Source of the DNA: Cyanidioschyzon merolae
Lineage: Eukaryota
Direction: 5' to 3' (one strand)
Assembly: GCA_000091205.1 (NCBI GenBank)
Contig: AP006494.2
DNA: 64,000 bases
Shown here piece after piece: positions 22,693 to 56,170 of this stretch (the stretch's first letter is position 1; every line of letters begins with the position of its first letter). Below the pieces are notes generated by a model. That model searched no databases. It saw only the letters and a program-made list of their open reading frames with translations, and was not told the DNA's origin. The translations under genes were made by a program, and so were the position numbers.

Positions 22693-22751
22693 GACAGTAT
22701 CTACGTGCGCTTTACGTACACTGCACCGCCGCGGACACCATCAACGCCGTT

Positions 22752-26559: not shown

Positions 26560-27585
26560 AGCTATTTTTCATCCTTGCAGAGCAGCAGAAACTGAGGCTT
26601 GATCGCAGCGATCAAGCCCCAGTTTCGCCATGTTCGGTTGGTAGGAATGCATCGCTTGCGCGGACGGAAGCTGAGATCTGCGATCCTTTTCCCATCGCCT
26701 TCTTCTTTGCATGGTACCCTCGGTGTGTCCTGCGCAGCAGTGACACTCGGTGGAGGTCAAGTGCCCAAATGTATCCGCAATACTTTCTCTACCAACGGCC
26801 GTTCTCTGGCACATGAGCGCATGTTTCACTGCACGGTACGTGCCCTGGACGGGTAGAGAAGGTTTCCCTACATGCTTTACTCCGTTTCCGCGCTCGGTGC
26901 TGTACCCCAGGATCACAAGCTCTATCTGCGAGATACCCTCGGCGAGTCTTCCGTCAGCTGCGCACGCAAGCGCACGCTGTTCCATTCCATGGAGGATTGT
27001 CGGAACGCGATGTTGTTCATGATGAAACAATGAACGGGACGAAAATTCGGGATGGAAATCAAGTCGAGAAACTCCGATCCGACAGCGCTGCCTTCACGCA
27101 AAGCGCTGACGCATTCTCCGCCAGAAGCGATCGCCCCGATGACGCAAGCGCGAGTCCAGGGCGCTTTTTCGTGCAAAGAGAAGTGACAGAAGCCGCTGCG
27201 AGCAGATCCCGCGACTGGTATCCTACTGCTATAGAATGCAGTTTCGTGGGTATTCAGAAAGACTGGAGAATTTGTTTTTCGACAGCATCGATTATTCGAC
27301 CCGCCAAGTTCCATCAACTTTCGGGATAGGCTTGAACAGCGGTCGTCAATGCAAGACTGTACGATTTGATCCGCGGTAATCCGGAGCGACGCGCGAGCAG
27401 CTGCACCCGCGAGTTGCCGTCGACCAGGAAGACCGTAAAAAACTTGAAGAATGCGTGATTTGAACATGCTACACGTACGAAGGAAAGCCTCATAGAGACC
27501 CTTATTGATGAATCCATTAATTTTGTCGCTCATTTTACGAACCATTCTTTGCGAGCTTCCGCGAATCACCACGATTCGCATGACG
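26560..27585 (-). pseudogene. 5-prime-truncated Fanzor/TnpB-like fragment (C-terminal RuvC half), subfamily 2
   Basis: ORF pieces 26922-27581 and 26569-27030 are in different frames. 'ELVILGYSTERGNG' corresponds to RuvC-II; 'GTYRAVKHAL…LTSTECHCCAGH' is the TnpB 'TSxxCxxCG' zinc-finger motif; 'LDRCDQASVSAAL' is the RuvC-III position. The upstream part 'FLDLISIPNFRPVHCFIMNNIAFRQSSMEWNSV' is homologous to the copies at 33.3 kb and 46.8 kb. Confidence 0.5.
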
Positions 27586-27985
27586 TAACCGATTCCAGTG
27601 ATCGAGGGTCATCTGTGCCATTCTGGAAAACAAATGCAACCACGAATCCTAGAACGACGTATGCATCCCTAACCTCTCATTGCCACGCTTTGAATGCCAA
27701 GGCTGTACAACTAAAACAAGAGCTGAAAAATACAAAATCGGAAACAGAACGAACAGTTCAATGATCTCCTCGAATCTGAGACACATGGAGGAGCTGGATT
27801 TTGGCTTCATTCCATGGCAGTGGCGCCAAACGTGGCTACGCTCCGCCACGCCCCGACCCGCTAAGGCGTACGTCGGCCTCGCGGGAATCCCTTCTATCCT
27901 TGGCTTTTCGAATATCGACTCGGCAGATCCCTGCGGTGCCTTTGCAGCGTCCTGATCAACGAGACGCTCTCCAGAGTAGCGGTTT

Positions 27986-32073: not shown

Positions 32074-32999
32074 GAGAGCGCGATCTGGCTTGCTAGGAAA
32101 TGATACGTACCGGCACTGGACGCTAGTACGCGAAGCTACCCAGGCAATACTTAGGGAAAGCGTGCTCCCCTGGCAAGCGATACTTGTTCGGAAACGAGCC
32201 GTCCAGTGCGCTAGATGCCGAGACCTTTACTTTGCTGCAACGCACGCTGGCTAGGTTCCAGATGATAGCGATGCCGCCGAGCGTTGTGGTATCGCGTTAG
32301 CATTATTTTGGCGCTATGCAGTTACAATCTGGGCATCGTCTGCTTCGGACTGACCACAACGCCAAAGCGCTTGTCGAGCAGCGTTGAACGGCTGTGGCTG
32401 GCAGTAACCCGCGAGAATCCGCGAGCGAAGCAGCGGCCGCTGCTATTGCGGTACCAGGAAACTCGCCAGCGGCGGCGGGTGCTCCTTGGAAGCTGCACTA
32501 GTCCTGCTCCCCGTCAGCGGGTCCAGAAGCAAGCCTTCCAAGCGAGAGATGATCACTGGACTCTGGTGCAGCTGGACCGGCTAGTCGATTGAAGAGGCGC
32601 CCACCTGCAGATCGTAACCGAGGCCTGGAGCAATGATCCCGTTTGAGGGATGCTTGGTAGAATCCAGTGCACCCGCTACAGGCAGTTAGACGGCTGAAGT
32701 ACGGCACCAGAGCGGGTCGACGGGACTGTGGAACTCTTGCACCAGAGCAGCCATTGCGCAAACCGGCAGGACTTGCTTCGTTCTACTCTCAGGTCAGACT
32801 GAAACGGAACAAGTGCACGAACGCGGGCGTGCACTCTAAATTATGGGTCTCCTCCATTATTGTCGACGCTTGTCTCTAGAGGATTCTTCTGCGACTGCCT
32901 CTTTTTCCTCCCTCATAGCTGATGATTTACATACACAGGTTTCTCCTTTGACTCCTATTATGGAATATGCGGTTGAAGCATTTTGACAACAGTGCTTCA

Positions 33000-34001
33000 G
33001 TACTGATTACGCTGCTTCCGGCTGTTTCTTTCGTCTGTCATGCACAAGCGAAATTGCCGTCTCCGCTTCGCTTGCCATTTTCGCCTTCATTGGATGCAGC
33101 CAATGTGCGCCCTTAACAACGTTAATATGTGATGATGCTCATATGTTCCCAAATGTCCACCATATCTTGTATTCAAAGCCCTGCTCTGTAGCGAATGAAT
33201 GCTTGCCTCACAGCTCGGTACTTGCCCTTAACGGGCACAGAAGGTACCCCTCGATGTATCCTACAGTTACTTCGCCCGGTGCCGCACCATAAGATCATGG
33301 ACTTTGTCGTCACAATGATTTCGGTTAGTACTCTGTCCGTTAGCATCGAAAGTGGACGCTGTTCAATTCGATAGAATATTCGTATAATATGAAATTGTCC
33401 ATGATGAGAAAAGCACAAGAAGGAGAATATAGACTCGAGATCAAGCCGAGCAATTTCCATGGGTCTACGCTCCCTTCCTGCAGAGTGGTGACGTGCTTTC
33501 TTCCAGAAGCGATCGTTTTAGGGACGAAAGTCAGCGTCCAAGACACTTTGCCACCCAAATAGAAGTCAAAAGAGCCTGTGCGAGCGATTCCTGTTGCATG
33601 TACCAGCTCCTGTCGCATGCCGAGTCGTCTACGGCTACAAGGAGAATCGGATTTGTCATTCGTGCGGCATCGATTATTTGACGTGAGCAGTTCAGTGAAG
33701 TTTCGGCAGGAGGTTTTGAACAAGTATGAAAGACTCGTCGTGCATTTTCTTCCTTCGCCAAGCCAGAGGCGCGAATTACTGCGCCCACAAGTTGCCTTGA
33801 AACAGAAAGATCGAGTACATGGACAATGCGTGATTTTAGCGTGCTAAACGTAAAAAGAAAAGGAGAGTGGACGCTCGCGCAAATGAAATGGATAATGATG
33901 GCGGTTATTTTACTTACACCTGCTCGACGGTACAGCGAACCATATTCATTCCGATGATGATCCGATTTCAGCAGCCAAGAGTCGAAGAATTTATTCCGCA
34001 C
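33000..34001 (-). pseudogene. 5-prime-truncated Fanzor/TnpB-like fragment, subfamily 2
   Basis: ORF pieces 33531-34001, 33340-33723 and 33173-33460, plus a downstream frame reading 'GTYEHHHILTLLRAHIGC'. 'VKGKYRAVRQAF' and 'TYEHHH' parallel 'TRTYKECARRF…TSYTHHELG' of the 22.7-25.2 kb copy. 'LLGLISSLYSPSCAFLIMDNFILYEYSIELNSVHF' is homologous to 46.8 kb 'SLDLFSSLYLPSVACFVMEEIAFRDAYFEWSNALF'. Confidence 0.5.
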
Positions 34002-34380
34002 AGACGACCGAGAATCCTCAACCTACACATGAATTTGTAATCCCTTATTGCCGTTCTCTGAACGGCGACGCTGTACACCTAAAAAGGTACCGGCAAAAAC
34101 TCGAAAGATCCGAGCAGTCCGAGCAGTTGAGGAATCCATTCTAATCGGGCCTGAGAGCGGAGTGCTATGTGGAAAGGCTTTTCCAGCGTGCGCGACATTG
34201 CATTCTAGGAGATTCACAGATGATGGTGCATCAATATCCTCTGAGACTCTTTAGAGTGGTGTTTAGCATTCCGCGCGGGGACGTATACGCGATATAGCCA
34301 GCAGAGAGGCGCCAACTGCTCGCTCCGGACTCAGTGGAACCAAACCGTTTCACGAGCATGATGGGCGAATTGATATCCAC

Positions 34381-35770
34381 CCGCAGACGCCTCCTAGCCC
34401 TTTCGACCCGCCCACTGATATCGGCTCCAGCTCTTTCCTGGACGATTCGGGTCAAACAAGCTGCTCCACGAAGTTGGATCGCTTCAGCACCTCGCCTCTC
34501 GCCTTCAGCACAACATATCGTCTGGTATAGACAGCAGCGCTATACTTTCGGTTCACAAATTCCATGCCTTTATTTCCTCTGGATGGACTCACGTATGCAA
34601 GGAGTCCTCGCTCTCGTGCCCTCAGTGCCATTCGTCGTTCTGTCAGCTCTCGGTACTTTTCTGTCGCCGAAGCGCTCCGCCGCCTTATTTCCAGCTCGAC
34701 TGTCTGAAATGGACGTCCCAGCTCATTCCTGACCTTTTCAAAATGAGCACACCTCTTCGTGTCCCTCGGTGACAACCCTCCCAGAGGAACACGTACTTGC
34801 GGGCGAAAGACGACATGCGCCCCGATGTGTCACTGTGTGCTGAACGCTGCACCGATTCGCCCAGTGGAGCGATCGTTACGTTTCGCGATAGAAATCACTC
34901 CTTGGATGAGGTTGAACCACGGGCGCTACGGATGAATGGGAAGCAGGCCTAGACCTACAGAATCGGCAACGGCTCGAACGCAAACGGAATGGTGAAATAC
35001 CACATCGTCCACTCTGAGAACGTTGCAAGACGTGAAGGAATAGCCTTCGATGGTTTGACAAGGTGGTTGGTGCTGTTGTATGCAACCTCTCTACGAGCGA
35101 AAGCGAGGCAGCCTGTTGAGTCCGCGGCAGCAAGATTAGATGATGATGATGACGTCGCTCTCCTCGAGCTCGATCAAACATACTGCAGGACCCCGCCGCG
35201 AATATCCATGTCGGCTCCGACGGTTTCGTCTCAAGGAGGTCACATCGACTGAAAGAACAAACCGCGGTGTCCCTGTACTTTTTTTTACCGATCGCAGCGT
35301 TCCAGGAACTTTATCGTTGCGATTTCAGTGGAACATGTCCGTGACTAGACCAGCACTCTGTTTTGGCGATTGTTTCCCGGTCTTTTCAGAATCACACGAA
35401 CCAGCTGTTGAGAAACGGAGACGCCCCTGGTGTCTACTGTCTTCGCTTTTGCTCTCCGTACGCTGATCAACGGGTCGATTTTCTACCTGTGACCGCTAAT
35501 TGCCTTTGAGAAAATCGGTGATTGGCGCGGAGCACACGTACTTGTTTCTTTCAGTGTGCCGCAACCGTCTGAGCACTGTGGTATGACTGATCTGAACGAT
35601 GAATGCAGTCCTCCTTGCACTGTTCAGTAAAGAACATATCCGAGAGGAAATCCGTCCACGATCCATGCAGTACAATGCATCGTGATTTCGATGTCCTGCT
35701 ATACAGTCCTAACAAGCATTCGATTCCACGCAGCGGGGGGTTGGAACAGAACTGAGTTGAGAAGTAGAAA
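34381..35770. repeat. Segmental duplication A, copy 1 (about 1.39 kb; near-identical copy at 41928-43300); carries small conserved ORFs and the 200-bp dispersed module at its 3-prime end
   Basis: The ORF-track proteins are identical between copies (e.g. 'MSPRDTKRCAHFEKVRNELGRPFQTVELEIRRR…' at 34452-34775 and 41995-42318). The DNA aligns end to end, with only a few differences (an extra T-run at 35277-35286 and a few substitutions). Confidence 0.9.
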
Positions 35771-37762: not shown

Positions 37763-37879
37763 ATTCCCATGAACCTCCGGTGATGATTCTCGGTAAAAAT
37801 GCTCGACGTCTTCCTAGCAATGCAAGCTGTGTTCATGTATATCCTTTCACCTGAATTGTGTGCCAGCTCTAAGCTCATG

Positions 37880-38400
37880 TCATTAAATGCTTGCTCGCAC
37901 TTTTTAGCAGATGCGTTCGATATACGTTCATTTCTACGAAAAGAAACTGTAACGGAAAGATAAGAATACGGATCTCAGGGATTTCAATTGGTCGCTATTG
38001 CCGATTGCCTGAGAAAACAAAAAAATCCTGTCCTTGCCGACCATCGAGCGACGGGGAGCATTTTACGACGACTACGGAGAAGAAAAGGGGGCATATGCCA
38101 GATGAGATGTTCGTCCCACGGGATGATGACGAGCCTGTCGTTGCACAGAGGCTGCGAGCTCGGAGAATCCCTGCATTGATGAGCACCATCAGCGTCAATA
38201 CAGGCAACAAGCTCATGAACGGAAACCTCAATGCCCCCATCAGTATCAAAAGATATGCGGTGCCGAAGACGAGACCATCGGAGCTGACTCGCGCAAACTT
38301 TGTAAGGCAGCATCCCAGGCTCGAAGTGTGCAGGGGGAGGCTGAAACCGACGATAGGGAACCGGTCGCAAAAAGGCTGGGAGGCGTATGCGAGCGGTCGT
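37880..38400 (+). mobile_element. 3-prime-terminal remnant of Fanzor/TnpB-like element (about 110 aa C-terminal RuvC-III region plus about 200 bp upstream), subfamily 1; paralogous to 45480-46000
   Basis: 'RRIPALMSTISVNTGNKLMNGNLNAPISIKRYAVPKTRPSELTRANFVRQHPRLEV' parallels 'RGLLALISTTNDGKKRMELVNRDLNAAINIRRCAMLENRPPYLPRANFIGQPLKVEL' of the 22.7 kb copy. About 93% DNA identity to 45688-45998, with weaker similarity upstream. Confidence 0.55.
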
Positions 38401-38451
38401 ATAAATGTTTACCCTTCCTTGTCGACGAACGTTTTCGTTTTGAGATCATAC

Positions 38452-40121
38452 TCATATTGACTATTTCGACACCAGTATCACTCATGAATCGCTCAGCAAA
38501 ATCATACGCGTTTTCTACAGATATGGCGCATCAACCGTCCGGGAGTGCTGAACAGCACCACGCCTGTCCCGCCTCTGGATGAGAATCATTCAATCACGCC
38601 ACGCATGACAGCCGATTCTTCCCAAGTCTGATTCGCCAGCGCTCGGGGACAACGCTCACACGGTATGCTGAACGATTTTCACATAGTTTCGCGCGACCCA
38701 AGCCTGCTGGACGCTTCGGCAGCTCGGCACATCTCCGGATGCTGATAAAGGCGTTGATGTCTCAGAGCAGCAAAAAAGGATCGCACGCATCGCTCCCGGC
38801 AGAAGAATCAATCCGTCACAGTCCGATCGCCTCGCACTGCGGCGTCTGCCATAGTCTGGTAAACTCGGCTTGCCCCGTTTCGGGCACCCAGCTCACTTCT
38901 ATGCTCGTCTTTACTCCCTGTTCCAGCGTGCACCAGTGCTCGTGGTGCGCGTGCGTCATCCTAAACGCGTCGATGGATACCGCACAGAACCGAGACATGC
39001 ACTCACACTGCGCTCTCGTCCACAGGGCACGAGTGCGGCCTCTGCACACAACAGCACATCCAGCGCTATAGGAAGCACCGAAGTGACGCGCATGATCGGT
39101 CGCTTCCATTTCGAGCGCACTGCACGAGCAGCTGAATACACGCTGCGTGCCGCCGTACAAAAGCGTCGTGGACGACGCGAGCGCGGTCCCAGGTACGCCC
39201 GCCACCGGTCTCCCGCATGTGGGACTCGGGCCTGCACTGGCTCTCCGAATGAAGCCTACAAAGCGTGACCCCCGCCTTGATACGGTGCGGGGCGCATCGA
39301 GACGCGCGCTGGCGCCTTCGTGACGCTGGCTCGTAGGCCCTCTGGCACACGTATTGCCCAGCCGCACATAGCACCGAGCACTGGAATCGCTGCGCAGCTT
39401 GATATGCGTTCTGTGCAGGTCTTTGGATACGTCCCGTCGATGTGGAAGCACCGCGACGGCCACGAGTGCCTTCGGTGTGAGACCCATGCGCATGCCAAAG
39501 GCTCTCTCTCCAACCACGATGAACGCTTCGCCGCGAGTCTCGCTGCTCGATTCAGGGCTCAGACTGGCAATATGCACGTAGACTGGTATTCCGTCGGTCT
39601 CCATGGTACCAGGAACCTGCTTTCCGTTTCCTCACTGTGAGCAGGCAACCCTGAACATGCTTCGTTCGTGCTCTTAGCAGCGTTGTCCACAGAGACCAGC
39701 GGTCGCTCTCTGCGCAGACTATGCAGTACACTGCAAGATTGTCGACCGCGACGCAGAGGAACTCTCGGCGACGCATATGGTGGCTGTCCCAGGTGGTCGC
39801 TAGAGGAGGCTGGGGCGCTCGCATTCGGAGAGCAAGGGCGCTTTTCTCTCGCGGAACCTGTTCATGCTGAGGCTGTAGCACAAGGTGCGAGGAGGGCACG
39901 TACCACGTTTCAACCAACCCGTGGGTACGATGTCCGTCGGTATCAGGCTGCCAGCAATACGATGAGCTTTGAGGATCGGGATCGACTTGTGCGCTCTCAG
40001 TGACGTTTCCTCGGAACTCGCGACCACCTCGATCGCTTTCGGCACCAGAAGCTCCTCATTGACCTTCTTCGATATGCGAAGCATTCTCTCCATGTGTCCC
40101 GACTTTTCTCAACCAGGAACC
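38452..40121. repeat. Segmental duplication B, copy 1 (about 1.67 kb; near-identical copy at 50086-51759); contains conserved minus-strand ORFs (40093-39800 and 39604-38816) of unknown function
   Basis: The ORF-track proteins are identical between the copies ('METDGIPVYVHIASLSPESSSETRGEAFIVVGERAFGMRMGLTPKALVAVAVL…' and 'MERMLRISKKVNEELLVPKAIEVVASSEETSLRAHKSIPILKAHRIAG…'). Only single-residue differences are seen (e.g. RLGNTCARGPTSQR versus RRGNTCARGPTSQH). Confidence 0.9.
38816..40093 (-). CDS. Hypothetical protein encoded within duplication B (possibly two exons: 40093-39800 and 39604-38816); second copy at 50448-51725
   Basis: The ORFs are conserved intact in both copies of the duplication. 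No confident family assignment; a faint resemblance to Iojap/RsfS-like or other small alpha/beta folds is not supportable. Confidence 0.25.
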
Positions 40122-40816
40122 TGAGGGTTTATCGCGCCGGCTGCGCGTTGCTTCTATTGCATATTTGCTCGATGGACACGCTGCTGGTGTCTTTTTGCGG
40201 CAATACCAAGGTGAAACAGTCATATAATTCAGCGCGGGATCCAACACAAAATTCTTCTACTTTTTACGCCGGTCTGATCGCACCGTGTGCTACAGGCAAG
40301 AGCGGAACGCTCTAACAGACGAAAGCTTATGGATGATTCCGGGTCCTCTACATACATACGCCTGCTTTATGTCGCGCAAAACCAGTGCCCAACCATTGAA
40401 TGGGCTACAAACTCACGCAAGTCGCTGCTGTGAGCGCTTCCGTGTTAGAGTTTCACCATTGAATTCCGAGGCTTCTCTCTATCGCATACAATGTCACGAA
40501 GAACAGATCGTTTAATTTGCCTTTGCCAAACCTGCTCGTGTTCTTCCATACCAAGTCATTCTGCGGGATCGACATCAGGGCCATGCCTCCAAAGCAGCAG
40601 TTCTTTGACGATCTGGCAGAGCACAGTCCCAAAAGCCACCTTCGCGGGGACTGCATGCGCAACTATAGCATCCACTGGGCGCCAAGCGTTGCACCATTCG
40701 CAGAACACGCCAACAAAACCCCGCGCGAGCTGTCCAGTACCCGGCGTGACTGATCTGATGACAATCTCCTGCTTGCTTCCCGTGAAACGAAGGGATCCGC
40801 ACTGTCGGCCGCTCAT

Positions 40817-41695: not shown

Positions 41696-41927
41696 TCGGG
41701 GAGTGCATCAACGTGCGGCGGCGGCGGTAGCGGCGGCAGCGGCGGTGTCATTACAGAGCGCAGCGCCCATCACTGCGATTGCGTGTGAGCGATGGTGCCC
41801 TAAAGAGATCGCTGTGCACTGTTTCGGTCATCATCCCTGATGCCTCTGTGTCGATGTTTTCTCGTAGATGTCAGCAAAACGATAGACGCTTGACAGCCAT
41901 AGAGGGTATATGTATCTACTCGCATGC

Positions 41928-43300
41928 AGACGCCTCCTAGCCCTTTCGACCCGCCCACTGATATCGGCTCCAGCTCTTTCCTGGACGATTCGGGTCAAAC
42001 AAGCTGCTCCACGAAGTTGGATCGCTTCAGCACCTCGCCTCTCGCCTTCAGCACAACATATCGTCTGGTATAGACAGCAGCGCTATACTTTCGGTTCACA
42101 AATTCCATGCCTTTATTTCCTCTGGATGGACTCACGTATGCAAGGAGTCCTCGCTCTCGTGCCCTCAGTGCCATTCGTCGTTCTGTCAGCTCTCGGTACT
42201 TTTCTGTCGCCGAAGCGCTCCGCCGCCTTATTTCCAGCTCGACTGTCTGAAATGGACGTCCCAGCTCATTCCTGACCTTTTCAAAATGAGCACACCTCTT
42301 CGTGTCCCTCGGTGACAACCCTCCCAGAGGAACACGTACTTGCGGGCGAAAGACGACATGCGCCCCGATGTGTCACTGTGTGCTGAACGCTGCACCGATT
42401 CGCCCAGTGGAGCGATCGTTACGTTTCGCGATAGAAATCACTCCTTGGATGAGGTTGAACCACGGGCGCTACGGATGAATGGGAAGCAGGCCTAGACCTA
42501 CAGAATCGGCAACGGCTCGAACGCAAACGGAATGGTGAAATACCACATCGTCCACTCTGAGAACGTTGCAAGACGTGAAGGAATAGCCTTCGATGGTTTG
42601 ACAAGGTGGTTGGTGCTGTTGTATGCAACCTCTCTACGAGCGAAAGCGAGGCTGCCGGTTGAGTCCGCGGCAGCAAGATTAGATGATGATGATGACGTCG
42701 CTCTCCTCGAGCTCGATCAAACATACTGCAGGACCCCGCCGCGAATATCCATGTCGGCTCCGACGGTTTCGTCTCAAGGAGGTCACATCGACTGAAAGAA
42801 CAAACCGCGGTGTCCCTGTACCTTTTACCGATCGCAGCGTCCCAGGAACTTTATCGTTGCGATTTCAGTGGAACATGTCCGTGACTAGACCAGCACTCTG
42901 TTTTGGCGATTGTTTCCCGGTCTTTTCAGAATCACACGAACCAGCTGTTGAGAAACGGAGACGCCCCTGGTGTCTACTGTCTTCGCTTTTGCTCTCCGTA
43001 CGCTGATCAACGGGTCGATTTTCTACCTGTGACCGCTAATTGCCTTTGAGAAAATCGGTGATTGGCGCGGAGCACACGTACTTGTTTCTTTCAGTGTGCC
43101 GCAACCGTCTGAGCACTGTGGTATGACTGATCTGAACGATGAATGCAGTCCTCCTTGCACTGTTCAGTAAAGAACATATCCGAGAGGAAATCCGTCCACG
43201 ATCCATGCAGTACAATGCATCGTGATTTCGATGTCCTGCTATACAGTCCTAACAAGCATTCGATTCCACGCAGCGGCGGGCTGGAACAGAACTGAGTTGA
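41928..43300. repeat. Segmental duplication A, copy 2
   Basis: See copy 1. Lies between the ClpP and DEAD-box helicase genes. Confidence 0.9.
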
Positions 43301-43647
43301 AAGACTATAACCGCGGATCGGGTCGCGCGGTCTGTACTTCGGCCTGAACTGCAAAGTTCTGGAGGCACGACTAACAATATTGCTGTTCTACATACTTTGA
43401 TCAGCAAGTTCCTCGTTTTACTTGGAAAGGCCATCGATTGGCAACCACAGCGGGCAGGACGACAGCCAAACGAACATTTCAACAAACGATATAGTACAGA
43501 ACTCCGTCCAGCTCTGGCTCACGTTACCTGGTCAACGAACACTACGGCCGTAACCAGGAAAGGTACGGTCTGAACTTGTGAAGCAAGCGACGCAGTGTTC
43601 GGCGGGCGCTTTGAGCTTATTGGGAGCTTGGGCACAGCACCTGCATT

Positions 43648-45432
43648 GTGTACCAGAGCCGTGATAACTCTGGACTGCCAACCGTGCGCCGCAGCCTAGA
43701 TACGCGCTCCCAGAGAAGTAGGTGCCAAATCATGACTTGGGCTTTTCTCGGTTTCCTGGCACCCCTGCCGGCTTGGAGGTGCGATCATCATAAGACGATA
43801 GGTGCTGGCAGCTGCAATTCGTTGCATACGGGGGGCGCTCACTGTTCCAGGCTGCGCCGTGCGGCCCTTGTGCGGGTACCAGGTCTCATAAATCCTGCTC
43901 CGTCTCTGTGGTATGCTAAGCGGCGCAGCTGCCGGCGCAGTGAGAGGTCAGCGCCTCTGAATCTGACATCCTCATTCGCCTCCCTGGGTGTTTTCCCGGA
44001 ACTCGTTACAGCACTCGATGCGGTGGGCATCCAGACCCCAACTGCCATTCAGACCCGCGCCGTTCCTGCGATTCTCGGAGGAGCCAGCGTTATCATCGGA
44101 TCTGCGACAGGTTCAGGCAAGACCCTTGCCTACTTGCTCCCAATAGTACAAAGACTCAAAAGCGAAGAACAGCAGGTCGTCTCGGAAATGCAGACAGAGG
44201 AAGCGGCTGAAATGATGCGGCGTGGGCGGCATCCCCTGCGCAGACCAGGTGCACCGCGAGCGTTAGTCATTACGCCGACTCGAGAGCTTGCAGAGCAAGT
44301 GCTTGGAGTCTGCAAGCACCTATCGCACTATATCAAAATTCGTGCGGCTTCGGGTCTGGGCGTCCGTCGCATAGTTCGCGCGCAGTTGGAAGAGCAGCCT
44401 GTCGACATCCTGATCACGACAAGTGGACGTCTACTGCAGCTCCTGGACGAGCAACTCATTCGACTGCGATCTGTGCAAACTGTCGTTCTCGACGAAGTAG
44501 ATACACTGCTGCTGGATGAGGGAGGATTCCACGACGATATTCGACAAATCATGGGAAAAGCCCGCAATACGCAGCAGTTCATCGCCGTCGGAGCGACGCA
44601 CCCCACTGCAGCGCAGAAGCTCTACAGAGAGTTCTGTCCAGGTGCAAAACCCATCACTGTGGATCTCCACCAGACACCATCGAACCTGCGTCAGAGGTTT
44701 ATTCGTGTGAGCGGTGCGAACGGCAAGACCGATGAAATCCTCGCGCTTCTCAAGGAGGAGACTCATAAGAAAACCCGTTTGCTCTCCGGAGGACGAGTTA
44801 TGGTGTTCTGCAATACGGTCGACAGTTGTAGATTTCTGGACTATTTTCTGCAGGAGCACGGCTTCACTACAGCGAATTACCATGGTGACATCCCGAAAGA
44901 CAGGCGCGAAGAAGAATTTCAAGCTTTTGTACGAGGCGAACGGCAGATTCTCGTTTGCACTGACATTGCGGCACGGGGACTCGACTACGACCACAAGATA
45001 GATCAAGTGATACTCTTCGATTTTCCGCGCACTGCCATAGACTACTTGCATCGGGCCGGGCGCACCGCTCGGGGTCCCTCGGGAACCGGCACCGTTACCT
45101 CTCTCGTAACAAAAAAAGATTTGCCACTAGCGAGCTTCATTGAGGACGCAACTCGCATCGTAGGTGTAGACCTCGTGCAGTACTGCGAGACCAAAATGCG
45201 TGAAGCCGTGAAACGAGACGAAAAACCCACGAACGTGAACGCGTCCAACGCGCCCCGCTCCGGTACTCGCCCTGGATCACGTACACGTCCTGGACCTGGT
45301 GCACGTCCTGGACCTGGTGCACGTCCTGGGCCTGGTGCACGTCCTGGACCTGGTGCACGTTCTGGACCTGGTGCACGTCCTGGACCTGGTGCACGTCCTG
45401 GGCCTGGTGCACGTTCTGGGCCGCCAAAGTGA
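43648..45432 (+). CDS. DEAD-box ATP-dependent RNA helicase (organellar-type N-terminal extension) with C-terminal (PGPGAR)n low-complexity tail
   Basis: Q motif '[14 protein letters not shown]'. Motif I '[15 protein letters not shown]'. Motif Ia 'PTRELAEQ'. Motif II 'VLDEVD'. Motif III 'GAT'. Motif VI 'HRAGRTARG'. The tail, encoded 45271-45424, is an 18-bp tandem repeat cctggacctggtgcacgt. The true start codon is uncertain (the ORF track starts at 43648). Confidence 0.85.
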
Positions 45433-45479
45433 ACTCGTGGACCGCTAACTGCCGTTTACCTCTACTAGACTCGACCCCC

Positions 45480-46000
45480 AGGTGCGTGTCATCAAATGCA
45501 TTTTCGCCATTTACAGCAGATGTGTTCGAAGTGCGTTCATTTTGTAGAAAGAAAAGGCCATGAGATAGGTATGGACGTTGTAGTCGGGAATCCTGGAGGA
45601 CCGTCATCGCCCGGTTCGACATAAATGCGAAAATATCCCCTTTTCGCCAACCATCAAGCGAAGAAGCGCAAATGAAGAAGCTGAAGAGGGGCAATATGCC
45701 AGAAAAGATGTTTGTCCCACGGGACGATGACGAGCCTGTCGTTGCACAGAGGCTGCGAGCTCGGAGAATCCCTGCATTGATGAGCACCACCAGCGTCAAT
45801 ACAGGCAACAAGCTCATGAACGGAAACCTCAACGCCCCCATCAAAATCAGAAGATACGCGGTGCTGAAGACGAGACCAGCGGAGCTGACTCGCGCAAACT
45901 TTGCAGGGCAGCATCCCAGGCTCGAAGTGTGCAAGGGGAGGCTGAAACCGACGGTAGGGGGCCGGTCGCAAAAAGGCTGGGAGGCGGCGTCTGCGGATAG
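45480..46000 (+). mobile_element. 3-prime-terminal remnant of Fanzor/TnpB-like element, subfamily 1 (paralogue of 37880-38400)
   Basis: 'MPEKMFVPRDDDEPVVAQRLRARRIPALMSTTSVNTGNKLMNGNLNAPIKIRRYAVLKTRPAELTRANFAGQHPRLEV'. Lies immediately downstream of the helicase gene. Confidence 0.55.
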
Positions 46001-46217
46001 ATATTAATTTGCACTCCATGGTCGTGCAGCTCTTTTGCATCACTGACTTGTGGTGTGTCTTAGGGTACAGTGATTCCCGCTTCTTCATGGGCACCACCGG
46101 CGTCAACAGTCGATGTTTGCTGCGCGAGCGTCAGGCACGATGCGTGGTTAGAATAAAATGGAACTCTGAACAGAGCGCTCTGTTCCGTCGTTGACCTTTT
46201 TTCCTAAACGTTTTTAG

Positions 46218-47370
46218 TTGCGCAGCCTCGGCATTCAAAGTGCAGCAATAGGAAATCGGGGATTCATACGTAGCTTTAAGATGCTCCGACGTCTCGGTGG
46301 AACGGCTTTTTCTCCTCTGTTAAACTGTCATTTCTTCGGTCGTTGGAATCAAGATGATCCACGACGCCTGTTAAGAAGGGTCCGCAAATTGCCCGATATC
46401 ATTATCGACTTCATTCCAAAAAGCTTCCGGTGCTCTCCTTTCCGCACGTATACTATGCTCAAATCCGGAAATCTTCTATTTATCTATGTTTCTGTTTCAG
46501 GGCAGGTCATATGCGTGGCAATTTGCGCCGCTAGATAGACGACGAAAGAGTCAAAGTCGCTTCTCGATGAGTATTTTGACAAGCTTATGCCGAAGGTTTT
46601 CTGAACGTCTCACGACAAATAAACGATCTCAGCCGGATGAGGACTCGTCCTCTTTATGTGGACATAGAACAAACTGCATTCCGTAACAACGTGATATCTT
46701 TCACGAGATATGTTCCTGGGGGCTCTCGTATTTTCTCTCTGCATCAGAAAGGGTCAAGGACTCGGATTTGCATCCTCGCGGCAACCGCTTTTCGTGGAAA
46801 TTCCGTCACCTGTTTGTACGGAGGGAGCGTAGACGAATCGAAATCTCTCGACTTGTTCTCCAGCTTATATCTGCCTTCCGTTGCGTGTTTCGTAATGGAG
46901 GAAATCGCGTTCCGAGACGCTTATTTCGAATGGAGCAATGCACTATTCCGTGCGTAGCGGACAGAGGACTCGTCGAGGGGATCACCTTCAAGAAGCCCGT
47001 TATCATTGGGTACGACATCGGGCGCGGAAACCGAGAAGGTCCTGGCAAGTAGCGCTTCATAGCTGCCATTGGCATACACCGAGCATTGAAGTGGGCCTTC
47101 TGGCATGAAAGGGCAACGCTCAAAACAGGAGAAGCGATGGATGTCCGGGAATGCCTGACCAGAGTCATATCCTGCCGTTGGAAAGGGCACGTCAAGGCAG
47201 CGCACAAAGATGATGGAAATATGAGGTGTAGGGTAAATCACATCTGCCGTCTGCGCATGAAATACGTCGACAACAGCTGGAAGCAGCTAACTCGGGACTG
47301 CAACGCAGCCATCAACATCATTCGGCTGTCGATAACCCAGCTGGAGGGAAACGAGAGACCGACGTATTGA
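46218..47370 (+). pseudogene. 5-prime-truncated Fanzor/TnpB-like fragment, subfamily 2, frameshifted
   Basis: 'KKPVIIGYDIGRGN' at the RuvC-II position. 'CRVNHICRLRMKYVDNSWKQLTRDCNAAINIIRL' at RuvC-III. The upstream ORFs are homologous to the 27 kb and 33 kb fragments. Confidence 0.55.
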
Positions 47371-47695
47371 ACGCCGGATATAACAAAGAGGAAATGAAGC
47401 AGTCTCTGATAAAAGCTGAAAAGGCTGATGTTGGTGACAGTGGGTATGGACTCAAACTTGAGATTGCACGCACGAGTTAGGAAAGTGGACCCGTTCCATT
47501 TTATTCTGGCAAGGATGTAGACAGCTTCGCGCATTATACTTCCAGCGAGATACTGACAAGGCAATGCGGACTACAGGCGACCAGAGCCGCAACCACGCGC
47601 GTCGCGAATACCGCGGGGACTCACTGGCATATAACAAATAGGACAAGGACGCATTTACACATGAGAGAGTGTGCTTCGTTCTGTGCTTGCCGCTT

Positions 47696-49699: not shown

Positions 49700-50085
49700 T
49701 TCATGCCTATTTATCCATCATTTTTCTGGTGATCGGCTAGCGCGCGCCCCCTATGGCATAGCGATCAGAGCAGGTCGCCGCCACTGCCGCCTCCAGCGTG
49801 ATGCAGGCAGCCGCATCACAGCTGCGACTGGAGCATCACCTAAGAATATCAGCAGTGCTGCATTCCCAACTGCGTACACGGAAACGAAGCGACGGTCACC
49901 AATAGTATGCTTGTACACACGATTCGAAGAGGACCACTGCTACAGTCCAATCCAGAGATTGTTCGAGAAGCTGAGAAACAGGCTTTTAAGAAACGTCATA
50001 GGATATTGTGCACCGCTGACGCCCTTAGTGCCCCATTGTAGGTGAGAGCGCCGGTCATGAGCCAGAAAGGATCGTATGCTCTCTA

Positions 50086-51759
50086 ATATTGACTATTTCG
50101 ACACCAGTATCACTCATGAATCGCTCAGCAAAATCATACGCGTTTTCTACAGATATGGCGCATCAACCGTCCGGGAGTGCTGAACAGCACCACGCCTGTC
50201 CCGCCTCTGGATGAGAATCATTCAATCACGCCACGCATGACAGCCGATTCTTCCCAAGTCTGATTCGCCAGCGCTCGGGGACAACGCTCACACGGTATGC
50301 TGAACGATTTTCACATAGTTTCGCGCGACCCAAGCCTGCTGGACGCTTCGGCAGCTCGGCACATCTCCGGATGCTGATAAAGGCGTTGATGTCTCAGAGC
50401 AGCAAAAAAGGATCGCACGCATCGCTCCCGGCAGAAGAATCAATCCGTCACAGTCCGATCGCCTCGCACTGCGGCGTCTGCCATAGTCTGGTAAACTCGG
50501 CTTGCCCCGTTTCGGGCACCCAGCTCACTTCTATGCTCGTCTTTACTCCCTGTTCCAGCGTGCACCAGTGCTCGTGGTGCGCGTGCGTCATCCTAAACGC
50601 GTCGATGGATACCGCACAGAACCGAGACATGCACTCACACTGCGCTCTCGTCCACAGGGCACGAGTGCGGCCTCTGCACACAACAGCACATCCAGCGCTA
50701 TAGGAAGCACCGAAGTGACGCGCATGATCGGTCGCTTCCATTTCGAGCGCACTGCACGAGCAGCTGAATACACGCTGCGTGCCGCCGTACAAAAGCGTCG
50801 TGGACGACGCGAGCGCGGTCCCAGGTACGCCCGCCACCGGTCTCCCGCATGTGGGACTCGGGCCTGCACTGGCTCTCCGAATGAAGCCTACAAAGCGTGA
50901 CCCCCGCCTTGATACGGTGCGGGGCGCATCGAGACGCGCGCTGGCGCCTTCGTGATGCTGGCTCGTAGGCCCTCTGGCACACGTATTGCCCCGCCGCACA
51001 TAGCACCGAGCACTGGAATCGCTGCGCAGCTTGATATGCGTTCTGTGCAGGTCTTTGGATACGTCCCGTCGATGTGGAAGCACCGCGACGGCCACGAGTG
51101 CCTTCGGTGTGAGACCCATGCGCATGCCAAAGGCTCTCTCTCCAACCACGATGAACGCTTCGCCGCGAGTCTCGCTGCTCGATTCAGGGCTCAGACTGGC
51201 AATATGCACGTAGACTGGTATTCCGTCGGTCTCCATGGTACCAGGAACCTGCTTTCCGTTTCCTCACTGTGAGCAGGCAACCCTGAACATGCTTCGTTCG
51301 TGCTCTTAGCAGCGTTGTCCACAGAGACCAGCGGTCGCTCTCTGCGCAGACTATGCAGTACACTGCAAGATTGTCGACCGCGACGCAGAGGAACTCTCGG
51401 CGACGCATATGGTGGCTGTCCCAGGTGGTCGCTAGAGGAGGCTGGGGCGCTCGCATTCGGAGAGCAAGGGCGCTTTTCTCTCGCGGAACCTGTTCATGCT
51501 GAGGCTGTAGCACAAGGTGCGAGGAGGGCACGTACCACGTTTCGACCAACCCGTGGGTACGATGTCCGTCGGTATCAGGCTGCCAGCAATACGATGAGCT
51601 TTGAGGATCGGGATCGACTTGTGCGCTCTCAGTGACGTTTCCTCGGAACTCGCGACCACCTCGATCGCTTTCGGCACCAGAAGCTCCTCATTGACCTTCT
51701 TCGATATGCGAAGCATTCTCTCCATGTGTCCCGACTTTTCTCAACCAGGAACCTGAGGG
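50086..51759. repeat. Segmental duplication B, copy 2
   Basis: See copy 1. The minus-strand ORFs 50448-51236 and 51432-51725 are identical in sequence to those of copy 1, apart from two or three residues. Confidence 0.9.
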
Positions 51760-53525
51760 TCCAACGTCCACGGAGCGCTCCATTTTGACCTTGTCCCGCG
51801 CACGGTTTCGGTTTTCGAGGTTGGTCTGATATTTCTGGGCACGTGCGCTGTAGGTTTTTTTCGATCGCCGACGAGGCATGGCGACGCATGAACATCGACC
51901 GGACAACATGTATGAACAAATCGCGGGTTTGACAGTCAGGCCGTGTTGCATCTTCAGCCACACGCGCCAGTTGCGATGTCGCATGAGAGTTTGACTGAAA
52001 AGCTCTAGTGGAATGTGGATTTCCAGCAGCAGTGCTTCTGGAGCTCCCCAAAAGACACTTGATTTGCGAATTTTGTTCACGCGGGGGAGGCCAGGTAAGC
52101 CTTCTTCGAATGCGAAGCATTTCGAGCCCCGATGGCGCCCTGAATTTTATACTTTGGAAGATTCTCGCAGTTGAAGTTTTATCGTGGGGAGACGCAGAGC
52201 ACGATTTCAGATTTATGTTTCTCCCCCGAACGCTTCCCCTTCACGCTGCTCGTTCTCCTCTGTTCAAGCGGATCTTCCTCTTCTTGCAAGTCGGTATCGT
52301 TTCCCATATTTGACCCTGGGGATACCATGCATAAGGTCGCTATGATCTTCAGCCGTTCCTGTCTTCGGGATTCAGACGCACCTGATGGACGGTGGCACAG
52401 TGGCGCGTCTCTTCTATACATGTATCTGCTATTCCTTACGTACCTTTCCGTCACTGTCTCGGTTGCAGGCGCACCAGCGCAGCGATGCACGCCTCCCTAC
52501 TCCATCCCGCGCACAAACAGTGGAGAACCATGGCAGATCAGCGCTGGCGAAGTTAGGGCATGTCTTAGCGAAGAGCGGTGCCATGAATGTCAACCGCTGG
52601 TCCATTGCTCCATGAGCGAAAACGCGGCGTATAACAGCAGCGAACAGAAATTTTTCTGGATTGAGCGCGGGACCACAGACTGATATGAAGCGGTACTCAA
52701 CTCGAAGCTCAGTCGCGTGCTCTTTTGACGCCTTAGAGCAACGAAAAGCGACGGTGTCTAAAACGAGTATATGCTGCTGGACCATTCTGTCTGTTTGCAT
52801 ACCTGTAGGCAACGAGACGCCTGGATCGCAACCAGGGCTGATGTTTTCTTGATGATCACTAGCGTCTTCTTCACGAACACCGGATTTCCCGCCTTCGAGT
52901 TCCCAAATTCGGGTCTTCCATTTCTCCCGAATGAAGTTTCATCGAGTGAGACGATCGCAGTTCGTTCCTGTGGTCCAAGTTCGCGTTTCTTTACGAAACA
53001 CACAGTGCGTTATTGAACACGCGAAGATCTCCCACAGATACATGCTGTTTTCTTTGTCCAGCTGTTTCTTTCCATCAACATTCTTATCAATGGTACCGAA
53101 AATGTCCAACCTGTGGTTGCAGTGGCAGCATTTCCTAGCATACCTATGGAGTGGCGCAAATTTTCTAAGCGACATCCACGTAGGTAGAGCCTGCGAATAT
53201 CTGGTTTGGCTGCACGACGTTAATAACAAATACTTGAAGACGAGCTGTTCATCAATATTTTAACCGTAGAATGACGATCGTATAGTAGCAAGGCCGTATT
53301 TTGAAAGCTAGACGTGACAAGCCTCCCTCTTTCCATGGCCTTTTTCCAGTGCGCAGGCTACAAACTTCGTCGCGCCGCTTGCACCCGGGCGCAACTAGCG
53401 AGCGGCAGGAACGCGCTCTACACATATTCCCAATCTCGTGGAGCACTGGTGTTCGTTCGTCTGAAAAACCTGCAGTTTCTGTGTACGCACGTGCGCCATT
53501 GTGCCCACTCGCTCGATAGACATAA

Positions 53526-54110
53526 GTGGTCTTTTCCTGTCTTCATCCTCAGCCAGAAATTAGGTTCTTGTTTCACTACCGTCGAAAGCTTCTTTTAAGC
53601 AAAACAGGTAACGCGCGGATGCCACTAGATAACGCGGCGCCGACCGTTCATCAAGTGGATCGCTCCACACGGAAATGGCCACCTGCACCAGGGACTCCCT
53701 TTACAGCACAAGTTTTTGAAGCGATTCGTGACATTCGAGACCCAGAGCACCCAAACACGCTCGAGGAGCTCGCTGTAGTGACTCCCGAGTCCGTTTCGGA
53801 GAGCTCTCGGCGACGGTTTCTTCTGGTATCGTTTACACCAACGGTCCCGCACTGCAGTCTAGCTGCCCTTATTGGTCTTTGCATACGCCAGCGGCTTGTT
53901 GACCTCGGACTTTCGCCGACCTGCGTCTCTGCACTGCCCGAAGTGGGAAAATCGCCGTATGCCCTGCGACTAAAAGTGCTCGTAACGCCCGATACCCATG
54001 TGCATTGGCAAGAAATCACAAAACAGTTGAATGATAAGGAGAGAGTGCTTGCCGCACTCGAAAATGCGCAGCTTAGCTCTATGGTCAGGGGTTGTATGCC
54101 GCTCCCATGA
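53526..54110 (+). CDS. MIP18/FAM96/CIA2 family (DUF59) cytosolic Fe-S assembly protein
   Basis: 'AQVFEAIRDIRDPEHPNTLEELAVV…VSFTPTVPHCSLAALIGLCIRQRL…LVTPDTHVHWQEITKQLNDKERVLAALENAQL' aligns closely with human FAM96B '[24 protein letters not shown]…[24 protein letters not shown]…[32 protein letters not shown]'. The likely start is near 53616 (MPLDNAAP…). Confidence 0.85.
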   Translation: MVFSCLHPQPEIRFLFHYRRKLLLSKTGNARMPLDNAAPTVHQVDRSTRKWPPAPGTPFTAQVFEAIRDIRDPEHPNTLEELAVVTPESVSESSRRRFLLVSFTPTVPHCSLAALIGLCIRQRLVDLGLSPTCVSALPEVGKSPYALRLKVLVTPDTHVHWQEITKQLNDKERVLAALENAQLSSMVRGCMPLP

Positions 54111-54268
54111 ACCGCATTGTCGAAGCCTTTTCCAGGATCCAACGGCCTACTATCGCCGATGCCCGCAAGGGTACAGCAAAGCCGCTCTGCCTCCGTGCGA
54201 ATTCTGCCTCAGTGCTTTCGACGCTGCAGCAGAAGCTGACGATAGGCTCGGATCCCGCAGGATCGTTT

Positions 54269-54296
54269 GAACGAACGAACGAACGAACGAACGAAC
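54269..54296. repeat. (GAAC)7 microsatellite
   Basis: gaacgaacgaacgaacgaacgaacgaac is seen directly. Confidence 0.9.
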
Positions 54297-55699
54297 ATTT
54301 TCAGAGGGAAGTCCGGGTTGTGGCCAGAGGACTTGAGGGAGTTTGGAATATAGTGCCGGTCGTTTCCCTGGTTGCTGTCACCGTCGTGGACTCAGAGATC
54401 CTTGATTAGATACAGCGATCCTGCACCTGTAAAGACTCCAGAGGTCTATGCTTGGGCGCGGAGCGCTCTCGAGTGCAGCCATGGTAGGCAGGCATGCGCT
54501 TGCGCGTTTCTGCGTTGCTCCATTGAAGCGGTACAGATTCCGTTTATGTGTAAGGCAATAGAGATCCACATCTGCAGGCAGCTATAAAGAGTATATGTGG
54601 AATGGTGTCTCTGGGAATAGCAATGGAAACGATTCAGATCCCCGCGCAACGCATACCAAGTTTGCCGACTTGAGCTCTGTTCAAATGTAAAGCATACGCT
54701 GGCATGCGTGCATCATATACAGACTCATCTGCATACGATACACCATGTCTTTCGGTACTCTAGTACAGCAGTTTCGCGAGATCCAAACCTCGGCGTAGGA
54801 ATCAGGTACTTTTCGCAACGCAGTGGATCCAGTGACATATCCAGCGATTCAAGAGCTTATTGGAGGCCGCGCTTTGCGTTCATACCATATGAGGCAGTTT
54901 GCGGTATTTGGTCCCAATCAGGGTATACAACGTGTGACTTGTTTATCATTGCCAGTCCTCGCTGGTGCTGCATCCCCCAAGCGCGATTCTCCGCGATATT
55001 GGCAGGAATGTGAGATTCTTTTCCGTCGAACAATCGCAGCTAGTGCTCGAGTGGATCTCAAAGCGCTATCGGGTGCATTCGGGTTCAGTGCCGTTGCTCG
55101 ACTTGCTAAGAAAAGAAGACGTTGCTTGCTCGAGCTCCATGTAAAAGCACTCTTCTAAGAATTTTCCTTCATTCGAGAAGAAGCGCGTGATATCGCTTGT
55201 CCATACCGTTTCCCTAGGTGCTCGTCCCGAGACGATCATCCTAAATCGAACTCGAAACTCTGTCGCGTACTGTGGCACTCGATCGAAACGAAAAAACAGG
55301 CTCATACGGTCAGAGCGTGGTGGCCGGGACGTCTTGCAACCCCGGAACGACCAGCGTTCAATCCGGAACAGGACGACGAGCCACGCAAATACTGTACATC
55401 CGGTCACCAGCGTCAGAAACAGAATCGATTTACCTTGTTCTGCAAGAAAAGTTTTGTTCGGCGTGATCAAGCCAAGAGCGGTGCCAAGGAGCGCACCACA
55501 GCTTGCAACGGCCACGAGCCACTCTGCAGCTGTGCAAGGCGTAAAACGGTGTTGCGCAACCAGATAGCAGATGATTTCGCGTTCCACGTGTCGACAGAGA
55601 CTGATAAGATCGTCAGGGAAACCAGGAACAGGAGCCATCGACCGGAGGAATCAAATGAGGCGTAACGTAACGCTGCACCAAGAACGGTGCGCGTAGACA

Positions 55700-56170
55700 C
55701 ACAGTGTTTAGTAGAACGATGAACATGCTACGACCACGCAGGGTAAATTGATGTTCAGACGCAGACGCCTCCCCATCTTTTACGACCGGCCACTGGTATC
55801 AGCTTCTGCTTCTCCTTGCGCAATTCGAGCCTAAGAGGTTTCCCCATAAAGTTCGCTCTTTCCAGCTCCGCGGGTCTCATATTCAGTACTGTACATCGTC
55901 TGACAATGACGGCGGCGTTGAGGTTTCGGTTCAGGAACTTTATGTGTTTCTTACATCTATTAGAGCTCTTCATTGCAAGGAGTTCTCGAACTCGTGCCCT
56001 CTGTGCCAGCAAAGTCTCGTCATCATCCTGGCCGGGAAACACCTTTTTTCTCGCCTATCTCCCATCTTCGTCTCCTTCTTCGTCGTAACATACGCTTCTT
56101 CGCTCTATGGTCGGCGAGAGGAGGATACTATTCGTTTGTTTTCCGGCAGCCGGCGATGATGATCCTCTAG
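55700..56170 (-). mobile_element. 3-prime-terminal remnant of Fanzor/TnpB-like element, subfamily 1
   Basis: ORF 55755-56042: 'LLAQRARVRELLAMKSSNRCKKHIKFLNRNLNAAVIVRRCTVLNMRPAELERANFMGKPLRLEL' parallels the C-terminus of the 22.7 kb copy. Confidence 0.55.

Follow-up and report, generated by a model that had tools for sequence, protein, structure and literature searches.

Here, we report that a 64,000-nucleotide stretch of the Cyanidioschyzon merolae genome (contig AP006494.2; hereafter the window) probably holds dead insertions of two DNA-transposon lineages bearing Fanzor1 genes, together with their shortened derivatives. Fanzor proteins were named by Bao and Jurka in 2013 (Mob DNA 4:12, PMC3627910), whose table lists one Fanzor1 family for C. 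merolae. For the element of this family, CMe-1A, they gave about 150 copies with about 80% identity each to a consensus of about 3 kb, and no terminal inverted repeats (TIRs); its target-site duplication was given as undetermined and its class as unknown (PMC3627910). A separate repeat with about 70 copies, TE-N2_CMe, matches the first 635 bp of CMe-1A (PMC3627910). The presence of many decayed Fanzor1 copies in C. merolae is therefore already known, and because CMe-1A copies were put at about 150, several Fanzor-like pieces per 64 kb are expected in kind, although those in the window are denser than the genome average.

The reading that we favor is as follows. Lineage A (CMe-1) would be an element of about 3 kb without TIRs, encoding only a zinc-finger-less Fanzor1, with a sharp hairpin 3' end and variable 5' ends. 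It would have yielded internally deleted, non-autonomous derivatives of 0.6 and 1.4 kb, in which a 5' module is joined to the last ~330 bp; these would have spread as already-shortened units, presumably mobilised in trans through their ends, and then decayed neutrally, ectopic gene conversion or duplication having subsequently made patches of them alike. Lineage B would be a deletion product in which two thirds of a Tc1/mariner/IS630-type DDE transposase, from its N-terminus on, are fused to the final ~140 residues of a canonical CxxC-bearing Fanzor1. The Fanzor 3' end was probably kept in every derivative because right-end cis signals for movement lie there. In working Fanzor and TnpB elements the guide-RNA gene is also at the right end, an overlap that does not show the remnants to be guide-RNA genes today.

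Copies were located by self-BLASTN and tblastx and with a family protein hidden Markov model (HMM) run against the six-frame translation of the window. The model was built from 11 of 47 relatives, nearly all from hot-spring metagenomes, which were found by searching 5.8 billion proteins with the repaired protein of the long copy. It matched (E = 1e-6 to 1e-148) at 22893-25106(-), 38125-38322(+), 45666-45920(+) and 55818-56033(-), the three short copies covering only the last 65 to 95 profile positions. A sequence-only reading of the window had listed seven Fanzor/TnpB-like loci in two subfamilies. All seven proved to be real repeats that align with one another in an all-against-all check (self-BLASTN and tblastx), the peptide motifs quoted for them are present, and the split into two groups is real. 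The count itself was too low: the HMM also matched at 34443-34730(-), 41986-42273(-), 38654-40012(-) and 50286-52154(-), which belong to unlisted copies at 34327-35767(-), 41866-43309(-), 38451-40128(-) and 50083-~52400(-), and small pieces at 15.3-15.7 kb, 5386-5797 and 63800-64000 had been omitted as well (Table 1). The HMM found no match to "subfamily 2" in the six-frame scan. Every Fanzor copy in the window has frameshifts or stops, and none can encode an active nuclease now.

A profile search of 1.84 billion cluster representatives returned 2,970 relatives of the lineage-A protein (family A), 386 of them below 1e-30, and 81 diverse full-length relatives were aligned and made into a profile. 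The RuvC triad is invariant in these 81 sequences: D422 (DPG), E593 (VDEFRTS) and D662 (NRD-NAA), with the C-terminally shifted Glu directly before the TS motif. Searched against the PDB, the 81-sequence profile matched PpFz1 of Parasitella parasitica (9cf0, E = 1.4e-22), SpuFz1 of Spizellomyces punctatus (8gkh, E = 1.7e-15) and GtFz1 of Guillardia theta (9cer, E = 7.8e-12). Pfam and PDB searches with the window open reading frames (ORFs) as single sequences, or with the 11-sequence profile, gave no significant match, and an AlphaFold2 model of the relative P0045 from a shallow alignment was unusable (pLDDT 38). At the level of sequence profiles, the match to three solved Fanzor1 nucleases establishes the membership of family A in Fanzor1 and bears out the "Fanzor/TnpB-like" label that the window copies had been given; what had been called "subfamily 1" is CMe-1, the Fanzor1 family that Bao and Jurka described in 2013.

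The zinc finger separates the two lineages. No CxxC stands between the RuvC-II Glu and the RuvC-III Asp in 77 of the 81 family-A relatives, and the Pfam TNB model scores family A far below threshold, so that a C4 zinc finger is not seen; because of the 77 relatives without CxxC, the finger-less state is an old, clade-wide trait of family A. Published work credits only "many" Fanzors with a zinc finger, so its loss does not exclude membership in Fanzor1. The sequence-only reading had seen a Cys-to-His transition within one family in three strings, "TSTECHCCAGH", "TSYTHHELG" and "TYEHHHIL". The first is a decayed in-frame form of the canonical TTAKCHRCEG of lineage B (the 26599..27766 copy reads ESIADTFGHLTSTECHCCAGH in frame and the consensus ESMVDIWEHLTTAKCHRCEG). 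The second is true family-A sequence, its two His being unconserved among the 81 relatives, and the third, at 33.1 kb, is read out of frame, the consensus frame giving QDMVDIWEHMSIITY*RC*. Because the comparison mixes two lineages and one frame artefact, no transition is documented.

Element ends were defined using 80 related metagenome loci (L001 to L080), most of which hold pseudogenes, with ORFs of about 770 codons only in L004 and L023. The long copy of lineage A contains at least three frameshifts, one of which splits ...KRMEL*/VNRDLNAAINI, and its HMM matches form a chain of frame-shifted pieces (E down to 1.8e-148). Its catalytic motifs GADPGN, VDEFRTS and NRDLNAAINI, the last beyond a frameshift, are recognisable. 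In 70 distinct copies the element has a sharp 3' boundary ~60-70 nt beyond the consensus stop codon; this boundary falls at window position 22736, where it is also set by a terminal hairpin ending ...GATGGTG. Four loci (L046, L051, L068 and L070) share a 5' boundary corresponding to 25705. Given these two ends, the long element measures 2,970 bp, which agrees with the published ~3 kb. Among the 80 loci, full-length CMe-1-type elements have a single core and 3' end in common and, judged on the 300 nt that precede the common 5' core, carry at least four classes of unrelated 5' extensions.

Two further features of the long copy were noted. Directly before RuvC-I, at 23713-24015, the Fanzor ORF contains four 75-bp in-frame tandem repeats encoding 25-residue acidic units, which also occur in variable number in related metagenome copies (e.g., P0001). 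The 3' end of the element lies 43 nt upstream of the start codon of the essential eIF5B gene (22692) in the same orientation; because of this short distance, the eIF5B promoter and 5' untranslated region must sit within or at the right end of the transposon. Two metagenome contigs, L061 and L063, preserve the arrangement with 98-99% identity.

The short copies carry the evidence for deletion derivatives. When the 37.9-, 45.5- and 55.7-kb copies were aligned with L068, L003 and L049 (n = 6), these ~600-bp units, three from the window and three from unrelated metagenome contigs, proved to share their outer boundaries and one internal junction. Each consists of a 190- to 270-bp 5' module followed by the last ~85 Fanzor codons and a tail. 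A DNA profile of the 5' module finds one constant position in about 50 full-length elements, which lies ~1.6 kb upstream of RuvC-I in the untranslated region ahead of the Fanzor ORF (25336-25150 in the long copy), and it also matches the 5' part of all six short units. Because the same profile recognises both, the short units are internal-deletion derivatives; because six of them share boundaries and junction, they descend from one already-shortened element, as the sequence-only reading had proposed for part of them. They are not the "3-prime-end-only" remnants that it described, since each also holds the homologue of the element 5' region. Nor are the 37.9- and 45.5-kb copies truncated at the same point, as had been thought: the pair aligns over the whole ~600 bp. 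Their identity reaches 92-97% only in 38082-38385/45683-45986 and is 47-69% on either side, a pattern that indicates later exchange between two old copies, as judged from the alignment. Like PATEs, the six units keep both transposon ends and were propagated as short units.

In the 1.4-kb derivatives (Table 1), about 1 kb of 5' region is joined to the last ~95 Fanzor codons and a tail. The homologue of the 5' part is L071 1589-2603, which sits right in front of a complete Fanzor ORF, and the 5' terminus of the 34.3-kb copy matches the 5'-module profile. The segment 41926-43300 is 99.3% identical to 34383-35760, and the last ~55 nt of the 41.9-kb copy differ.

Near-identical tracts in these two unrelated pairs (99.3%, ending at 34383/41926; 92-97%, ending at 38385/45986) stop within ~5 nt of the same point, ...GGGAGGCG(TCTGC). 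The stop point lies ~20 nt before the ancestral stop codon in the 5' arm of the first of the hairpins described below, and the tails beyond it are only ~50-60% alike; it may be a recombination or repair hotspot or reflect 3'-end swapping. Two tail types (alpha and beta) that had been distinguished by eye among the remnants were rejected, with pairwise identities of 0.45-0.67. A 1,678-bp duplicate (38451-40128 = 50083-51760) starts at the apparent 3' end of the 50-kb element and stands tail to tail with the 37.9-kb short element, with 8 bp between the 3' ends (38443-38451).

A DNA profile of the three window copies of "subfamily 2" (nhmmer) collected at least 16 long copies with common ends from the window and the loci. 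Their consensus is 1,379 bp long between imperfect TIRs of ~40 bp (CTCTACAC..GTxAG..AAATGGAACA at both ends), and the window copies are 72-74% identical to it. One frame encodes a helix-turn-helix and the N-terminal part of a DDE_3 transposase (VVIDETAFDS...CFIMDNIAFHKS...YSP), and another frame encodes a Fanzor C-terminus (VILGYGTGHGNG...VDIWEHLTTAKCHRCEG...RLCKKY...RNRDLNAAINILR). In Pfam the consensus matched DDE_3 (PF13358, 36.5 bits, cut-off 28.6, E = 5.4e-9), HTH_Tnp_Tc3_2 (E = 4.5e-4) and Cas12f1-like TNB (PF07282, 28.3 bits, cut-off 26.3), the last with a CxxC finger, KCHRCEG...RLCKKY. Compared with the Fanzor1 profile by hhalign, the C-terminus gave 97.3% probability (E = 1.7e-11); the decayed 26.6-kb ORF by itself gave no significant hhalign match to the family profile, and the 16-copy consensus was needed. 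The Fanzor part comprises the last ~140 codons, with nothing before the RuvC-II strand, and the transposase is without its C-terminus, the region of the third acidic residue being truncated. Decay allows the ends of the copies, where a TA target-site duplication would lie, to be placed only approximately. On this composition, lineage B is a putative internally deleted Tc1/mariner/IS630-type element that once carried a Fanzor.

The sequence-only reading of these copies as Fanzor thus stands for the last ~140 codons, where TNB is above threshold, and fails for most of the ~1 kb, which is DDE_3 transposase; the LDLISS...FIMN string taken as a Fanzor motif belongs to that transposase. The two groups are not subfamilies of a single family: "subfamily 2" is a distinct, TIR-bounded mariner-type chimera. 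Fanzor1 is carried by Tc1/mariner elements elsewhere, namely PGv-1, PUl-1 and PUl-4 (PMC3627910).

In at least five independent places (Table 1), a family-A 3' end lies 0-180 bp upstream of a chimera 5' end in the same orientation, which might reflect an insertion preference. A composite "family A + lineage B" element was rejected because adjacent copies are separated by unrelated sequences.

When folded one by one, 42-46 distinct copies of the main family show recurrent hairpins in the last ~110 nt. A 9-bp hairpin lies inside the last codons (GAGGCGTCT...AGACGTTTC), and one of 17-19 bp lies at the very end of the element (CACCGTTGGCGTCGTTCGA-CTT-TCGAACGGCGTTGATGGTG). The terminal hairpin occurs in a second sequence version (GCGACAACGTTTTTC-TTTT-GAAAGGCGTTGTTG) and also with a G-C to T-A double change. 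It folds better than shuffles (z < -2 in 22 of 42 copies), and in a fixed alignment 77% of cells pair, against 38-53% with the partners slid. Pairs changed on both sides number 16 against 9.8 expected, a count reached by 1 of 500 shuffles; the covariation score is unexceptional, being reached by 57 of 500. Palindrome arms can co-change through templated repair, without selection. The terminal hairpin appears real, but as a selected structure it is only modestly supported.

Several points weigh against two lineages of dead elements with mobilised derivatives. Mobilisation in trans through the ends is inferred for the lineage-A derivatives, for which no target-site duplication or empty site was defined, and covariation in the hairpin, on the shuffle counts just given, is modest. 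The shared tract ends at ...GGGAGGCG(TCTGC) are not predicted by random gene conversion. Only two short ORFs came out of a search for the intact parent of lineage B, and the adjacency of family A and lineage B is unusually frequent, so that simple clustering may not explain it.

It is unlikely, if compatible with that reading, that CMe-1 moves by a hairpin-dependent, one-ended or rolling-circle route of the Helitron2/IS91 kind. Elements moving in this way would have 3' ends that are fixed, 5' ends that vary or are truncated, and 3' tails that have been swapped. Lineage A is without TIRs and has a sharp common 3' end with the 17-19-bp hairpin, at least four unrelated 5' extension classes on a common core, a 99.8%-identical 5'-truncated copy beginning at the apparent element 3' end, and copies with identical bodies and different tails. 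A 3' hairpin near the end, as in Helitron2, is found here as a predicted structure with at least two stem versions. Precedent exists in the 3' over-abundance and one-ended transposition of Fanzor1 Helitron2 elements, a route that Bao and Jurka proposed for CRe-1/2/3 of Chlamydomonas (PMC3627910). Against it, neither the window nor the loci revealed a RepHel or other HUH gene; 5'-T/CTRR-type termini and Helitron2's asymmetric terminal inverted repeats (ATIRs) were not found (ATIRs by eye). The hairpin also sits at the very end of the element rather than 10-30 nt inside, its arms may have co-changed by templated repair, and the near-identical partial copies could be plain segmental duplications.

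An improbable extension would make the 3'-terminal hairpin and ORF-end module of CMe-1 dual, serving as an HUH/rolling-circle-like transposition signal and as the last omega-RNA stem. The 0.6- and 1.4-kb derivatives would then be guide-RNA-bearing satellites using the Fanzor of master copies, and the tail-switch breakpoint at ...GGGAGGCG(TCTGC) would mark repair of nuclease- or hairpin-induced breaks rather than gene conversion by chance.

Highly doubtful is the proposal, which the sequence-only reading raised, that the short remnants are functional non-autonomous omega-RNA-only elements, whose guide RNAs would be loaded on Fanzor from intact copies and aid retention or homing. The guide RNAs of Fanzor1 and TnpB are encoded at the ORF end and right-end region, which is what the short units keep; their shared boundaries indicate propagation after the deletion, and a few related copies in natural populations (L004 and L023) still have ~770-codon ORFs. 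The equivalent region of the main family has hairpins, the terminal one kept in two sequence versions, and in the Fz1 omega-RNA stem-loops precede the guide (PMC11423790). Indirect tests of the remnants themselves gave no support. Their tails have no consistent or unusually stable fold (z -3.0 to +0.9), RNAalifold predicts next to no common structure for 54 aligned 3' ends (-1.2 kcal/mol), and the short units are without the last ~45 nt of the main family, which form the terminal hairpin. Within the short units, the 3' module is conserved no better than the 5' module (0.68-0.70 versus 0.62-0.71). Pairwise divergence is ~34% and even over codon positions (0.35/0.31/0.37), so the units drifted as non-coding DNA; the main family shows a third-position excess (0.16/0.14/0.27), from which it follows that the full-length lineages diversified under protein constraint. 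There is no Rfam match within the window, and the window holds no intact Fanzor gene to supply the protein. Fold, substitution pattern and 3'-module conservation thus show no constraint of the kind expected for a guide-RNA scaffold, and a present omega-RNA function of the short units appears unsupported; these tests do not prove that their ancestors never made guide RNAs.

That the fragments arose separately by random decay, each as a truncation of its own full-length insertion that never spread in shortened form, is extremely improbable: the copies are all old and degenerate and deletions are common in dead transposons, but shared junctions already contradict it, in six short units (5' boundary, internal junction and 3' region), in two 1.4-kb copies (another junction) and in at least 16 lineage-B chimeras (one junction and both TIRs).

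Table 1. Fanzor-related features of the window, with the evidence by which each was placed
Feature	Coordinates	Strand	Remarks
Full-length dead CMe-1-type Fanzor1 element	22736..25705	-	2,970 bp; ORFs, HMM positions 4-668
~0.6-kb internal-deletion derivative	37840..38443	+	nhmmer 5'-/3'-module profiles, 6-unit alignment; HMM positions 604-668
Parts of the 37840..38443 unit	37840-38119; 38101-38443		5' module; last ~85 Fanzor codons + tail
~0.6-kb internal-deletion derivative	45449..46053	+	Same structure as 37840..38443; HMM positions 586-667
~0.6-kb internal-deletion derivative	55701..56318	-	Same structure as 37840..38443; HMM positions 602-671
1.4-kb internal-deletion derivative	34327..35767	-	HMM positions 576-670 at 34443-34730
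Second 1.4-kb internal-deletion derivative	41866..43309	-	BLASTN, HMM, module profiles
Heavily decayed, nearly full-length Fanzor1 copy (SIDAFRMTHAHHEHWC...)	50083..52400	-	5' limit approximate; HMM positions 35-671 at 50286-52154 (E = 2.7e-32), ORF translations concur
5'-truncated duplicate of 50083-51760	38451..40128	-	99.8% identical; HMM positions 194-671 at 38654-40012
Full-length 1.38-kb chimera (lineage B)	46146..47522	+	72.5% identity to consensus
Full-length 1.38-kb chimera (lineage B)	32782..34146	-	72.3% identity to consensus
3'-truncated chimera (lineage B)	26599..27766	-	Consensus positions 26-1176
Solo 5' module of 1.4-kb-derivative type	5386..5797	-	~71% identical to 35358-35760 and 42898-43306
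Partial 5' module	63800-64000		Cut by window end
Small decayed fragments	15302..15702	+	15302-15576, weak mid-Fanzor HMM match (E = 0.21; tblastx pairs with 51064-51318); 15556-15702, chimera 3' terminal region (nhmmer, E = 7e-11)
Family-A/chimera junctions	34146-34327; 46053-46146; L049 8375/8376; L038 ~4985/4987; L065 ~1048/1075

Three long window ORFs are identical to annotated proteins of C. merolae 10D (eIF5B, BAM80756; MutS2, BAM80766; branched-chain E2 subunit, BAM80752). The remaining large ORFs are eukaryotic genes of an ordinary kind without introns, among them those for ORC5, a DEAD-box helicase, a TPR/HAT protein and a SET-domain protein; by this gene content, the window is transposon-rich nuclear DNA of a C. 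merolae 10D chromosome. Short tandem duplications occur at 3144-3342 (~86-bp units) and at 45262-45422 (units of ~90-108 bp, in the DEAD-box helicase ORF at its 3' end). Three repeat pairs stand in identical order and orientation (-,+,-) in the neighbouring blocks 34.3-40.1 kb and 41.9-51.8 kb, two of their offsets between 34-41 kb and 42-49 kb being nearly equal (7,543 and 7,601 bp). A segmental duplication of 34-41 kb onto 42-49 kb was rejected, as the sequences and genes between the repeats share nothing. A diverged repeat pair, 14184-14773(+)/52765-53357(-), with ~30% identity in tblastx, looks DDE-like by eye (IVSLDETSFGRNG...), and each member lies directly upstream of a decayed Fanzor fragment. 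As DDE transposase remnants the two were rejected, with no Pfam support and no BLASTP match to the lineage-B transposase.

The core finding of decayed Fanzor1 copies in C. merolae was published in 2013 and changes nothing; the added anatomy is of specialist interest. For transposon biologists, the re-analysis has modest value in that apparent 3' remnants are two-ended deletion derivatives and in that a second, mariner-associated Fanzor lineage, missing from the 2013 C. merolae table, is added. The sharp right end of CMe-1 with its predicted terminal hairpin, and its heterogeneous left ends, offer a lead on how a transposase-less Fanzor element moves. The mariner-Fanzor chimera and the 3'-terminal hairpin of CMe-1 are possibly new; no relevant work emerged when the literature was searched for non-autonomous derivatives of Fanzor. 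The C. merolae genome is tiny, nearly intron-free and genetically tractable, and if the right-end module were a working guide-RNA gene, the organism would be convenient for testing eukaryotic Fanzor homing.

With PpFz1, SpuFz1 and GtFz1, family A shares profile-level homology from REC/WED to RuvC/TNB, the D...E...D triad, and the DPG and RD-NAA motifs. The CxxC...CxxC zinc ligands kept in PpFz1 are lost in the family-A clade, for which no guide RNA or activity is known, and the window copies, unlike the solved nucleases, are all pseudogenes. The long copy and CMe-1A agree in genome, in length (~3 kb), in being without TIRs, in having Fanzor1 as sole protein and in their many diverged copies. 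It measures 2,970 bp, and related copies are 74-88% identical at the protein level; the terminal hairpin, the 0.6- and 1.4-kb deletion derivatives and the variable 5' classes seen here are not in the 2013 paper. These 5' classes recall the "fuzzy 5' ends" reported for other Fanzor1 elements.

Like TE-N2_CMe, to which it is likened by description, the 5' module is a 5' portion of a Fanzor element found as an independent repeat (alone at 5386-5797 and 63800-64000), and it also heads the deletion derivatives; the solo module begins ~370 bp inside the 5' end of the long copy. CRe-1/2/3, non-autonomous Helitron2 elements of Chlamydomonas, share with lineage A a 3' hairpin, over-represented 3' ends, internal deletions and extra 5' sequences, whereas for the C. 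merolae elements no Helitron termini, ATIRs or RepHel partner came to light. Bacterial PATEs are non-autonomous IS200/IS605 derivatives that keep both ends and are defined by conserved subterminal palindromes recognised by TnpA. The short C. merolae units lack a conserved hairpin and a known transposase, but they resemble PATEs as short derivatives with the transposon ends kept, among them the right end, which holds the sequence for the TnpB guide RNA. Although only a fused, internally deleted 1.38-kb remnant is present here, lineage B matches PGv-1, PUl-1 and PUl-4 in combining a mariner-type transposase and Fanzor1 inside one TIR-bounded element.

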